This document shows positions 6,290-57,330 of a stretch of DNA of 64,000 nt, in pieces. Numbering within the stretch: position 1 is the stretch's first letter; every line of letters begins with the position of its first letter. A program made the position numbers and the translations under genes. The stretch comes from Octopus vulgaris (lineage: Eukaryota), in contig OX597818.1 of the NCBI GenBank assembly GCA_951406725.2, positions 22,754,001 through 22,818,000 of the forward strand, read 5' to 3'. The notes beneath the pieces are model-generated. The model saw only the letters and a list, made by a program, of their open reading frames with translations. It did no database searches and was not told the DNA's origin.

Positions 6290-6545
6290 TAGCCGAAGTC
6301 GCGTCTCGCCTTCACCTTCGAAACGCGGAGTAGATGAAGCCATGGCGACTGAAGAAGGGGAATTATCCTTGTGTTATTTGTCCTGTACTCTATTTTTTCG
6401 TTGTTTAAGAAAAATGTCCAGTTCCTTGGTTTTGTGTTTATGTTTTCGTTTCTCATTGTGTTCGACGTTTTTTTGGTGTCCTGTATCCATATATGCATGT
6501 AGATGTAGGTACGTACATATATGTATGTATCTATGCATATGTTTT
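6290..6545 (+). mobile_element. PLE pseudo-LTR-like repeat, family 1
   Basis: Near-collinear with 9745-10005 and, inverted, with 55975-56156. Carries the HHR motif and sits among microsatellites. Confidence 0.6.
6300..6360 (+). ncRNA. Non-circularly permuted hammerhead ribozyme motif (family 1)
   Basis: cgcgT-C-tcgcc..ccttc-GAAA-cgcg..ggcga-CTGAAGA-agggg. Stems III and I are Watson-Crick; stem II pairs with G-U wobbles. Confidence 0.7.
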
Positions 6546-6605
6546 ATTTATTAATTTGTTATTACACGACAGAACGCACGCATCCATTTCTAAGTAAGTT
6601 TGTTC

Positions 6606-6636
<31 letters not shown>

Positions 6637-7029: not shown

Positions 7030-8241
7030 ATGAAGGTGAAAATTGGACTAAGAATGATACTAATAGTAATAAAAATAAAAATATACCTATTACTAATAGA
7101 TACAGGAATGGCCTTGCATTTAGTACATCAAGTCAAGCAACAAATTGTAATCCCATTATTAATACTAAGTCTAGGATTCGTCAAGTTACCTGGTTTGCCC
7201 CTCCTTTTTCATTAAGGGTGAAAGGTTTACCAAAGCTATTTTTTAAGTAATTGAAGGAAAATTTCCCAAAACACCACAAATACTATTCAATATGTAACAA
7301 GTCAACAATCAAGTTGGCCTACTCAGTCACTCCCAATGTCGGATCTATTATTGCTTCGTTGAACAGAAGTAAAATAAGGCGCTATAATGATAGAAATGAT
7401 AACAGAGGCTTTAATGGAAAATTCATTAATGACATAGAAGATAGTAGTAATATTAATAGTACGTCTTCTGAAATCGATTATGAAGGGCATCTTGGAATGA
7501 CAAATAATGCAAATAGTAGAAATAATCATAATAATGATGTTGGTGATGATATTAGTGATTATAATGATAATCAGGGTGGTAATAATAGTGTTAATTGTAG
7601 TGATAATCGTAATAAAAATATTAGTAAAAATAAAAATAAAAATAAGAATGATGGTAATAGTAAGAATAACAATAGAATAAATATACCGGAAAATAGTACG
7701 AACGATGGTGTAAATGATATGGTGGATCGTAGTACTGGGAGGGGGCATGGTTTCGGAGTGATCAGTAATGTGAGACCCCGTAGCAGGTTGAAGAAATGTA
7801 ATTGTAGGGACCCATCAGTATGTCCGATTAACGGAAATTGTCGTCAGGAAAATGTAGTTTATAAATGTAGTGTTGAGGTACAAGGAGGCCAGAGAAAAAT
7901 GTATATTGGAAGCACAGTAGACTTTAAGCAGAGGTACCGATCCCACCTGAGCCCTTTCAACAATCCTAAATATAGGACCTCTACAACTTTGGCATTACAT
8001 GTTAATGACCTTAAGGAGAGGAATGTTGAATTTAAAAATATCATGGGATATCCTTGCGCATGCCTCTTATAGAATTGGGTCCACTAGATGCGGTTTATGC
8101 ATAAGGGAAGCATATACTATATTGAAAAATTACAACGACGCAGTGTTAAATAAGTTTACTGATGCAATACCAGCGTGTACGCATAGGATCCGCTCGACGT
8201 TCCATAAGAAATTTAGAAATAGAAATAGCAATAAAAGTTAG
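7030..8241 (+). pseudogene. 5'-truncated Penelope-like element ORF (Naiad-like) with C-terminal GIY-YIG endonuclease
   Basis: TWFAPPFS linker, CNCRDPSVCPINGNC Zn knuckle, VVYKC..MYIGST..FKQRY.SH, CGLC..E, LN and CTH motifs. In-frame TAA at 7248 and a frameshift near 8035-8040. RT core absent. Confidence 0.88.
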
Positions 8242-8650: not shown

Positions 8651-8735
8651 CATCCTGATGAGGCGAGTGCCAATTTTAAGTATATGATATGTCTAATAAT
8701 ATTAATTGGCGCGTCTCCGAAACGGCCCGTAGATG
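8651..8735 (+). ncRNA. Type I hammerhead ribozyme in the PLE 3' region
   Basis: catc-CTGATGA-long stem II (gtgccaatt/aattggcgc)-GAAA-cggcccg-TA-gatg. Core intact, cleavage triplet GUA at 8729-8731. Confidence 0.85.
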
Positions 8736-9324: not shown

Positions 9325-9750
9325 CGAGCGCATTGATTGTGTTGAACCGTTAATCTCTACACATTGTTTTCTTTCCGTTTTTCTTTTCCTCTGAAGAGCG
9401 TATGTTCGGTCGTAAGACTTTTCCATTCTCCCCAACGTTAAACTAATACACGTGCTTGTTGTTCCTACACCTGTCTTCATCTTTTGTTTTCTGTAAATTT
9501 GAACTATATGTATATATATATATATAAAATCTGTTTCTCAAAAAATAGCGTTCGTAAAATTTTTTTATCTCGTTTGGCTTAACAGCCCTCCTTGTTTGTG
9601 CTACTGTTATTCTCCGTTGTCCTGTCCTTTACTGTTTATATTTTGTACTGTCGTTACTGTCCTGTTTTTGTTACCATTTTTACCCCTCCGCAAAAAAATC
9701 TCAAATTTTATTTAATTTGATTTCCGCGTGAAGGAAAATTTCATTGAAGT

Positions 9751-9811
9751 CATGTATCGCCTTGACCTTCGAAACGTGGAGTAGATGAAATTAAGGCGAC
9801 TGAAGAAGGGG
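9751..9811 (+). ncRNA. Non-circularly permuted hammerhead motif (family 1, second copy)
   Basis: catgT-A-tcgccttga-ccttc-GAAA-cgtg..ttaaggcga-CTGAAGA-agggg. Stem I extends to 9 bp. Confidence 0.72.
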
Positions 9812-10681
9812 AATTTTCCTTGTTTTGTATGTCCTGTACTCTATTTTTTCGCTGTTTAAAAAAATGTCCATTTCCTTGGTTTTGTGTTTATGTTTTCGTT
9901 TCTCATTGTGTTCGACGTTTTTTTGGTGTCCTGTACCCATATATGCATGTATATATACATGTAGAGGTAGGTACGTACATATATGTATGTATATATGCAT
10001 ATGTTTTAGTTATTTATTTATATATATATATGTATATGTATATGTGTGTGTGTGTGTGTGTGTGCATACACATATGTATGCATATATAGATGCTGTGTGC
10101 GTGTTTGTGTGTCGTATGATTTTCAACAAGTAGTGTAGCACTCGATCAGTTAAATGAGTGAAAATATTAATATAATAAAAGAACACAAAAAGCCTAAAAA
10201 GCCTTGTGAGAAAGTCAATTGCTAAACCGTCTTGTTGTTTTTAACAGCTTGATAAATGGCGAAATGAATTAATATCTCGGCTAGGAAGCCTTGTATAGCC
10301 GTATTTCACAATACTTTTTTGTGGATTATATAACAAGAACAACAACAGCAGCAACAACAACAATAACAACAACAACAACAACAGTAGTAGTAGTAGTAGT
10401 TATATATAAACGCAGGCGTGGATGTGCGGTAAGAAGCTAGCTTTCCAACTACGTAGTTCCGGGTTCAGTCCCACTGCTTGGCACCTTGGGCAAGTGCCTT
10501 CTACTAAAGCCTTGGGACGACCAAAGCCTTGTGAGTGGATTTAATTGACGGAAACTGAAAGAAGCTCGCCGTATACATACATACATATATCTATACACAC
10601 ATACACACATACATACACACATACATACATACATACATACATACATACATACATACATACATACATACATACATGCATGCA

Positions 10682-10784: not shown

Positions 10785-11243
10785 ATATATAGAAAATAGT
10801 AAAAAGTGAAAAAACTACAGAAGGCTTGTTTTAAAAGGTTAAAAAATATATATTTGAGTCATTATGTCAGAAGAATGTTATAAATTTTTTTCATACAATG
10901 ACATAGTTTTTGAAGAAATGACCGGTTTCGCGTTCAGCTTTTCAAATTTCTTACATCGTTTTGTTTTCGTTGAGAAGTGTAAAGAAATATTAAGCGATTA
11001 TCTCCCTTACACCAGAAGAAATCACTTATTACATCCCCTTATCTGGAACTCTTCTTTACACTTCTCAACGAAAACATAACGATGTAAGAAATTTGAAAAG
11101 CTGAACGCGAAACCGGTCATTTCTTCAAAAACTATGTCATTGTATGAAAAAAATTTATAACATTCTTCTGACATAATGACTCAAATATATATTTTTTAAA
11201 CTTTTAAAACAAGCCTTCTGTAGTTTTTTCACTTTTTACTATT

Positions 11244-11253
<10 letters not shown>
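10785..11253. repeat. ~200-bp near-perfect inverted repeat (foldback), probably PLE-derived
   Basis: Arms 10785-10986 and 11052-11253 differ at about 2 positions; spacer ~65 nt. Confidence 0.92.
11086..11125 (+). ncRNA. Minimal type I hammerhead, U3-A8 core variant (mirror copy at 10913-10952, minus strand)
   Basis: aagaaat-TTGAAAA-gctgaacgc-GAAA-ccgg-TC-atttctt. 7-bp stem I, GUC site, palindromic stem III. Confidence 0.75.
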
Positions 11254-55498: not shown

Positions 55499-56289
55499 CA
55501 GCAGAAATATTGGGTAAATTGCCCTTACAAAGCGGAAAAATTTATCAACCAAAAGCCATGGGTCTCGAACCCATGTCTTTTAAAAACTCCGGCCAAGTGC
55601 TTTATCATTAAGCTAAACTGCCCGCTGACATATCAATCTGTTTTTTAGACGCTTTTTTAAAAGCTAAATGTGCAACCACGTGCATATAAATATAAACAAG
55701 CTAACGTTTTTCATTTATATATAGGCGCCGAAATGTGTATAGAGATACAATAATTTGTCAACAAACAGCCATGGGACTCGAGCCTATATCTCTTAAGACT
55801 CTGGCTGTTTGACATATTTTTTCGCTTTGTAAGGGTAATTCACCTAATGTGTCAGCTGTTTTAACGGCATCTCGGTATTCGAAAATAAATCATCTTATTT
55901 GTATCTCTATACACATTTCGGCGCTTATAAAAAAAAACAGAAGAAAAACAGTTGTAAATAAAATAAAACATATGCATATATATAAACATATATGTACTAC
56001 CTACCTCTACATGTACATATACACGCATATATGAGTACAGGACACCAAAAGGACGTCGAACACAAAGAGAAACGAAAACATAGACACAAACCAAAGGAAC
56101 TGGACATTTATTTAAAAACAGCAAAAAAAAAAAAAAAAAAATAGAGTACAGGACAATTCTTGTCCTGTTTTCCATTTCTTTCTCTCATTGTTTGCGTATT
56201 GAACACATTTGCTTTCGTAATACATGTTGTATACAGATGGTGACGTCCTGTACCCATATATGCATCTGTGTGTGTATGTATTATATATA

Positions 56290-57140: not shown

Positions 57141-57145
<5 letters not shown>

Positions 57146-57330
57146 TATATGGGTACAAAGCTCGAAATGGGGAGTAGATAGACAGTCGACAACTGATGAA
57201 GGGTCGTTCTTTATGTTTCTTGTCCTGTTTTCCATTTCTTTCTCTCATTGTTTGAGTATTGAACACATTTGTTTTCGTAATACATGTTGTATACTGATGG
57301 TGAAGCCCTGTACCCATATATGCATCTGTG
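57141..57330 (+). mobile_element. PLE pseudo-LTR-like repeat with inverted 17-bp end and partial permuted HHR
   Basis: atgcatatatgggtaca (57141) is inverted at 57309-57325. GAAA at 57164 precedes CTGATGA at 57193. Body matches 56157-56270. Confidence 0.6.

Follow-up and report, generated by a model that had tools for sequence, protein, structure and literature searches.

The 64,000-nt stretch of the Octopus vulgaris genome analysed here (positions 22,754,001 to 22,818,000 of contig OX597818.1, assembly GCA_951406725.2; hereafter the window) carries at 9751-9811 a segment that a sequence-only reading took for the second copy of a hammerhead-like repeat, family 1, which keeps its pairing through substitutions. 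The question raised by this locus is whether the altered copy is an inherited, structure-keeping variant or the decay of a single insertion, and in which fold such an RNA would work. Part of that description is read directly in the letters: stem III is catgt/acgtg (9751-9755/9774-9778) here and cgcgt/acgcg in the copy at 6300, a G-C pair being replaced by A-U and a C-G pair by U-G; the site is GUA (9754-9756) instead of GUC; and the stem I strand 9757-9765 runs directly into CCUUC-GAAA (9766-9774). GUA is a cleavage site of natural hammerheads and is active in a viroid ribozyme, according to the available portion of PMC1636495. The 6300 copy, which had served as the reference for these changes, is not the ancestor of the 9751 copy, because it is 5′-truncated, is without the upstream stem II strand described below and belongs to a different subfamily.

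The exact 29-nt stretch 9751-9779 occurs 228 times genome-wide and its control 0 times, and a 106-nt query gave 1725 candidates, of which 40 were scored, 8 of them identical and 32 near-identical. When 103 copies were placed on a tree from their flanks only, the 40 catgt/acgtg copies needed a single change (shuffled mean 27.4; 0 of 500 shuffles as low); the branch support for the group is weak (57/0), and the cgcgt/acgcg and tgcgt/acgca labels are unseparated on this tree. These results rule out private CpG decay and answer the question, left by the earlier reading, of whether catgt/acgtg is fixed or decayed: the variant is fixed in a subfamily. When stem III was left unconstrained, the pattern matched 743 places in the genome. 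By hand count in the 100 copies listed of these 743, all three free stem III pairs were kept in 96, A at 16.4 was accompanied by U at 15.4 in 57 of 58 cases and A at 15.5 by U at 16.5 in 47 of 48, with G-U intermediates occurring among the variants. The caveat that the stem III changes also fit CpG decay is correct in that all three are CpG-type transitions, but the first of these pairs co-varies in all but one case and the other helices show double changes that are not of the CpG type. To judge from the compensated stem III pairs in the listed copies, CpG transitions furnished the changes, but the source elements that spread preserved the pairs. Judged by these sequence comparisons, the 9751 variant is real, inherited and structure-keeping.

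The motif pattern has 2 matches in the window and 0 in 100 shuffles, and the hammerhead core is present in the 9751 copy as CUGAAGA (9800-9806), GAAA (9771-9774) and U-H (9755-9756) with A15.1-U16.1. Core nucleotides are intact in 101 of 108 distinct copies, a proportion partly forced by the search pattern, which fixes the core; variation at N7 and H17 stays within the range permitted to hammerheads, H17 being G in 1 of the 108. Along the strand the blocks follow one another as site (S), GAAA (G) and CUGANGA (C), which is the non-circular order of type SGC and differs from the circularly permuted, pseudoknot-free order of hammerhead types I-III modelled in Rfam. The Rfam scan of the 64-kb window returned no hammerhead match at the gathering score and only a tRNA-like match. 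This weak match, at 55550-55622 (-) and of 29.8 bits, is possibly the head of a tRNA-derived repeat. Inspection of the parts in Table 1 suggests that the boundaries first given to the motif, 9751-9811, are too narrow, since they omit the upstream strands within 9730-9744 that most likely complete stem II and a further helix, P4.

Table 1. Features of the family 1 motif and related copies in the window; stem and helix assignments are those of the predicted fold
Feature	Position	Strand	Remark
Family 1 copy, 5′-truncated non-coding retroelement	9536..10029	+	94% identity to natural copy L003
Stem II 5′ strand GAAGG (predicted), G10.1 = 9730	9730..9734	+	5 Watson-Crick pairs with 9766-9770
Helix P4 5′ strand	9737..9744	+	8 bp with 9785-9792; links stem I to stem II
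Block S: stem III strand 9750-9755 (U16.1 = 9755), unpaired A17 9756	9750..9765	+	
Block S, remainder: stem I strand 9757-9763, then 2-nt linker; predicted cut 9756/9757		+	
Block G: CCUUC 9766-9770 (stem II 3′ strand), GAAA 9771-9774, stem III strand 9775-9779	9766..9779	+	
Helix P4 3′ strand	9785..9792	+	Pairing and covariation in aligned copies
Block C: stem I strand 9793-9799, CUGAAGA (C3 = 9800, A9 = 9806)	9793..9806	+	
Post-A9 stretch, source of rival pairings	9807..9821	+	Helix energies, pair counts
6300 copy, another subfamily	6295..6612	+	Homology starts near 6295, just upstream of block S
Family 2b copy, split layout	11469-11399	-	GGGCA upstream pairs with UGCCC; nothing after A9 can
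Family 2 copy, split layout	40776-40704	-	Private change breaks stem I

The larger fold was examined in an alignment of 33 rows, chosen from 51 by omitting two mis-cut rows, rows with upstream indels and three 6300-type rows. When stem II was formed with the upstream strand, 93.4% of cells were paired, against 39-47% in slid controls. Double changes are found in 10 of 23 pairs (stem III 3/5, stem I 4/7 and P4 3/6 scored pairs), counts that are inflated by the relatedness of the copies, and the paired cells amount to 98.2% in stem III and 90.4% in stem I. The double changes of stem I and P4 include transversions, and in older subfamilies the sequences of stem I and P4 differ greatly yet remain complementary. 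The claim that pairing was kept through substitutions is borne out across subfamilies by stems I, III and P4, and the two stems flanking the site, I and III, show the covariation of a hammerhead, with the same inflation by relatedness. As for the length of stem I, which had been given as 9 bp, tcgccttga (9757-9765) and ttaaggcga (9791-9799) can indeed form 9 bp, one of them G-U, but the last two pairs need 9791-9792, which also close P4, and pairs 8 and 9 are impossible in a sister subfamily; a stem I of 7 bp plus a 2-nt linker is therefore more likely. Folding with a pseudoknot-free model gave no unusual energy (z -1.5, 0.7, -0.7), and such a model cannot represent the proposed fold.

Our preferred reading, to which we give a probability of roughly 0.68, is that 9730-9806 is a hammerhead core, likely folding co-transcriptionally into a pseudoknotted ribozyme, with a predicted cut after A9756 and the chain open between A9 and G10.1. 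The strands follow in the order stem II, P4, site, GAAA, P4, CUGAAGA, so that the stem II strand 9730-9734 lies upstream of all other parts and is detached from CUGAAGA. P4 and the 2-nt linker may stand in for the usual loop-loop contact.

The main alternative, which we regard as quite unlikely, is that family 1 is a plain type SGC ribozyme, in which stem II forms with GGGG after CUGAAGA and the upstream strand closes an outer helix with 9812-9821. Family 1 does have the S, G, C order, the short linker between stems I and II and the extra helix joining them that characterize this type, in agreement with the available text on published type SGC ribozymes (PMC10085705). Three pairings are open to the stretch after A9: a weak rival stem II at 9808-9811, with an extra A and two G-U pairs; a competing enclosing helix formed with 9731-9740; and a G-U-rich stem IV with 9719-9725. 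A viroid precedent is described for an extra core nucleotide, which is said to be positioned after A9. Both stem II options persist in family 1 and neither covaries: with the upstream strand, 97.6% of stem II cells are paired in the 33 copies without covariation, and the SGC option, which combines the outer helix with a GGGG that follows an extra A, has 93.7% of cells paired, its outer helix 95.8%, with one-sided G-C to G-U changes. No double change was found in the downstream stem II or in the outer helix, which speaks against the SGC option. The isolated stem II energies are -8.7 (upstream) and -4.1 (downstream) kcal/mol; summed over compatible helices, with loops ignored, the split fold reaches -17.6, the SGC fold -12.7 and a non-catalytic fold, which hides G8 and A9 and is about equal to the split fold, -17.3.

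The two options were also compared across families. Families 2/2b and N share the split layout of family 1 with unrelated stem sequences, the upstream stem II pairs being GAAGG/CCUUC, GGCUG/CAGCC, GGGCA/UGCCC and GACAC/GUGUC. A strong upstream strand at fixed spacing is found in 96/120 copies of family 1, 32/50 of family 2/2b and 56/70 of family N, some of the misses being truncated or decayed. A partner of at least 3 bp immediately downstream is present in 118/120 copies of family 1, which favors the SGC option there, but the partner is of 3-4 bp in these and strong in only 2/120, has two G-U among its four pairs, shrinks to 3 bp in an older subfamily, and is found in 0/50 copies of family 2/2b and 6/70 of family N. 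CUGANGA followed within 1-2 nt by a stem II strand is possible but weak in family 1, absent from families 2/2b and nearly so from family N. If up to 7 inserted bases are allowed, a 4-bp downstream partner appears in 15/50 family 2/2b copies and a G-U-rich one in about half of the family N copies; a further stem after A9 has 7 bp in 12/50 family 2/2b copies and is weak in families 1 and N. Because across families only the upstream partner is kept at fixed spacing, the upstream strand is preferred, and we infer the same for family 1; there 9730-9734 would be the better partner for stem II than the stretch after CUGAAGA. The simplest common reading across the families is a chain opened between A9 and G10.1. 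Regions 9730-9741 (around the upstream stem II strand) and 9805-9816 (starting at G8) nearly repeat each other in direct orientation. This hints at an origin of the split form by duplication in an SGC ancestor, or else at a switch in which the two strands compete.

Genome-wide there are 1745 candidates for family 2b and 228 exact matches for family N, and the change that breaks stem I in the family 2 copy of the window is absent from the 24 closest other loci. A descriptor scan covering 464 kb, made up of the window, which was not randomly chosen, and 40 stretches of 10 kb at even spacing, gave 9 canonical type I and 4 split-type motifs, the shuffled mean being 0.1 in all. The canonical type I motifs of this genome are separate families; candidates in the window are 47807-47723 (-), with an extra U after A9, and 8651-8735 (+), both missed by Rfam at the gathering score. 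The window also contains an inverted repeat with 202-nt arms (10785-10986 and 11052-11253), 99% complementary and 65 nt apart.

Family N is the 3′ end of a Naiad Penelope-like element. Its motif lies in the sense orientation downstream of a Naiad reverse transcriptase remnant in 24/40 loci and in the antisense orientation in 0/40, two of the 40 having been chosen with the knowledge that the motif was there, and window sequence matches the 3′ end of a published octopus element. At one locus (L301) an endonuclease, CxC, DKA and YIDD precede the family N motif in the Naiad order, labelled after PMC8557442, and the domain order was also read at a second (L296). The RVT_1 match at a family N locus is weak (E 2e-4, below the cut-off), and among 40 family N copies with 4.2 kb upstream, clear Naiad coding remnants were found in 1.

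We also inspected the published Naiad 3′ ends, using the last 480-600 letters before 24 headers of the consensus file of PMC8557442, parsed by eye without a control, with species names inferred from the order of the metadata sheet. By this inspection 12/24 ends have non-circular hammerheads. Seven show the split form (two Octopus, Euprymna with a decayed stem II, Acropora, Morbakka, Clytia and Pomphorhynchus), 3 are CSG (Stegodyphus, Nippostrongylus, Heligmosomoides) and 2 are SGC (Limulus with an insertion after A9, and a second Stegodyphus with a variant core); the others comprise 1 probable case, 3 partial ones and 8 with nothing in the stretch viewed. In the available text of that paper, Naiads target (TA)n and are without canonical hammerheads, some having a core or half core that fits no descriptor; its HHR_core and HHR_half_core flags mark several of the records read here as permuted ribozymes. 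Short family 1 motifs were absent from the Naiad supplement, a weak test since its lines break every 70 letters.

Family 1 itself is abundant in this microsatellite-rich genome of 2.8 Gb, the spaced pattern giving 766 exact matches and the reversed control 0. Its unit is about 805 nt long, non-coding, and found in partial tandem and inverted arrangements, with tandem spacings of 803 (L011), 804 (L015/L016) and 807 nt (L014). (TA)n borders the copy at 9536-10029 at either end. Among 30 copies chosen by their order in the genome, the 3′ ends cluster some 237 or 289 nt beyond where block C begins, and 24/30 adjoin a microsatellite at fixed 3′ offsets, the 5′ starts being scattered. Tandem and inverted units, a fixed 3′ end, 5′ truncation and microsatellite targets are the features of a non-autonomous Penelope-like element, the same anatomy as that given for Penelope-like elements in the accessible part of PMC8557442. 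Elsewhere in the window, 57145-57230 (+) is a decayed family 1 relative and 56155-55955 (-) a family 1 fragment without ribozyme. A 213-aa open frame at about 7250-7890 (+) (L031:2467), 0.6 kb after the 6300 copy, resembles the end of a Penelope-like reverse transcriptase.

The carrier of family 1 was sought among neighboring frames. Within 1.5 kb flanks of family 1 loci we found no frame combining an N-terminal GIY-YIG, CxC, DKA and reverse transcriptase upstream of the motif, and family 1 and 2 motifs occur in 0/40 Naiad loci; a Naiad partner acting in trans is possible. Flanks were inspected at about 90 of the 766 family 1 places. A Penelope-like frame upstream of family 1 at one locus (L115) was rejected as the partner, as it is part of another active family, whose own motif is type I-like and is present in 16/18 loci examined. 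A motif of the family 1 type lies near these active frames in 2/30 loci, namely L193, which is the same place as L115, and an unrelated insertion. This Penelope-like family (L193-L222; L115:2-526) is very young, with a C-terminal endonuclease and many identical 791-aa frames, and its type I-like motif has UUGAAAA instead of CUGANGA, a core variant also present in a published spider Naiad end. Four contig runs over a tandem copy have no common start or end, and contigs cannot show RNA ends or circles.

The occurrence of copies in tandem and inverted pairs is compatible with a hammerhead that assembles only between molecules or tandem units, or with the protein of the element, so that the single-strand topology would not be the working one. 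Penelope-like hammerheads working as dimers are known from the available literature, and one needed its protein to cleave (PMC11167929, accessible part). Nevertheless, this reading is improbable: stem III has its full 5-6 bp here, as opposed to the short stem III of dimer-dependent forms, the inter-strand spacings are tightly fixed within one unit, and the published SGC and CSG ribozymes cleave in cis, as far as PMC10085705 was available. The least probable reading, a non-cleaving relic or protein-binding structure whose pairing survives through CpG-biased mutation in near-palindromic stems, accommodates the CpG-type nature of all the younger stem III changes, the unremarkable folding energy, a terminal stem III pair that reads C-A without compensation in 4/103 copies and the description of cephalopod Naiads as long inactive remnants in the available text of PMC8557442, but those four copies are scattered on the tree like private changes, transversions occur among the double changes of stem I and P4, N7 and H17 vary only as hammerheads permit, and the layout recurs with unrelated stems in other families and phyla. 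Taken jointly, all readings other than the split fold and the plain SGC fold are unlikely.

If the split fold is correct, stem II, stem III, P4 and stem I would already be in place when transcription reaches the 3′ sequence that competes with them, and G12 would act as the base and G8 as the acid, as in other hammerheads (PMC11300833, available part). The cut after A9756 would trim tandem transcripts of the 805-nt unit to monomers, perhaps circles, as proposed for retrozymes. A Penelope-like reverse transcriptase may then act in trans on the non-autonomous element, starting about 280 nt past the site, with insertion at (TA)n. Copies spanning two sites (L011, L014, L015/L016) agree with a template that is circular or was left uncut. 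What the cut does is the least secure part of this mechanism, since in one Penelope-like element cleavage needed the protein and was dispensable for insertion in vitro, as described in the accessible part of PMC11167929.

The closest published systems, compared here on the available portions of the papers, are the ribozymes of the SGC and CSG types in PMC10085705 (Eckert et al. 2023, HRIMA-1), whose cleavage was validated and in which an extra helix joins stems I and II. They share with family 1 the cyclic block order, a stem I-II linker of 2-3 nt and the extra helix, but they came from metatranscriptomes or metagenomes, with none in genomes of known organisms other than one bacterial GCS candidate in the text available, whereas family 1 is in an animal genome. 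In addition, their CUGANGA runs into stem II, and CUGANGA with its neighboring stem strands was assumed to be uninterruptible, which would be contradicted by a break between A9 and G10.1; in family 1 the stem II strand is most likely at the 5′ end. Naiads (Craig et al. 2021, PMC8557442) resemble family 1 in having copies that are 5′-truncated and form partial tandem and inverted arrangements, in targeting (TA)n and in the want of a canonical hammerhead, and differ in that family 1 is an 805-nt non-coding unit, for which no link to a Naiad frame was found, with young identical copies, unlike the cephalopod remnants described there. The non-LTR retrozymes (10.64898/2026.07.22.740005; PMC11167929) are likewise non-coding tandem units with one hammerhead each and depend on a Penelope-like enzyme, as is proposed for family 1, but theirs is of type I (CGS) and was found with type I descriptors, which are unable to match the family 1 order. 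The pistol-like pseudoknot hammerhead (PMC11300833) also has a pseudoknot and an added helix in place of the loop-loop contact; it keeps A9 joined to G10.1 and its pseudoknot replaces most of helix II, whereas the predicted fold of family 1 has a full helix II of 5-6 bp and the break at A9/G10.1. On the basis of this modelled fold, family 1 is likely a new variant within the hammerhead class.

A literature search that included few subscription papers turned up neither non-circular hammerheads in animal genomes or in Naiads nor a break at A9/G10.1, and the available text of PMC13725137, PMC3088659, PMC10162972 and PMC2632901 mentions none. We think it probable that non-circular hammerheads of the CSG, SGC and A9/G10.1-split forms are carried by Naiads and their non-coding passengers, in hosts ranging from corals and jellyfish through nematodes and arthropods to cephalopods. 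If so, animal genomes would commonly contain non-circular RNA permutations, numbering thousands of copies, and a connection between the CUGANGA strand and stem II would be dispensable. With the split layout, the view that the CUGANGA block is uninterruptible would have to be given up, and the most widely used ribozyme would gain a new place at which helices can be opened or grafted. The layout would also explain why Naiads seemed to be without hammerheads, and it bears on whether they truly lost the ribozyme kept by other Penelope-like elements or escaped descriptors that assume the canonical order. Non-circular hammerheads would then sit in an animal chromosome, with hundreds of exact copies per family and compensatory changes that can be traced.
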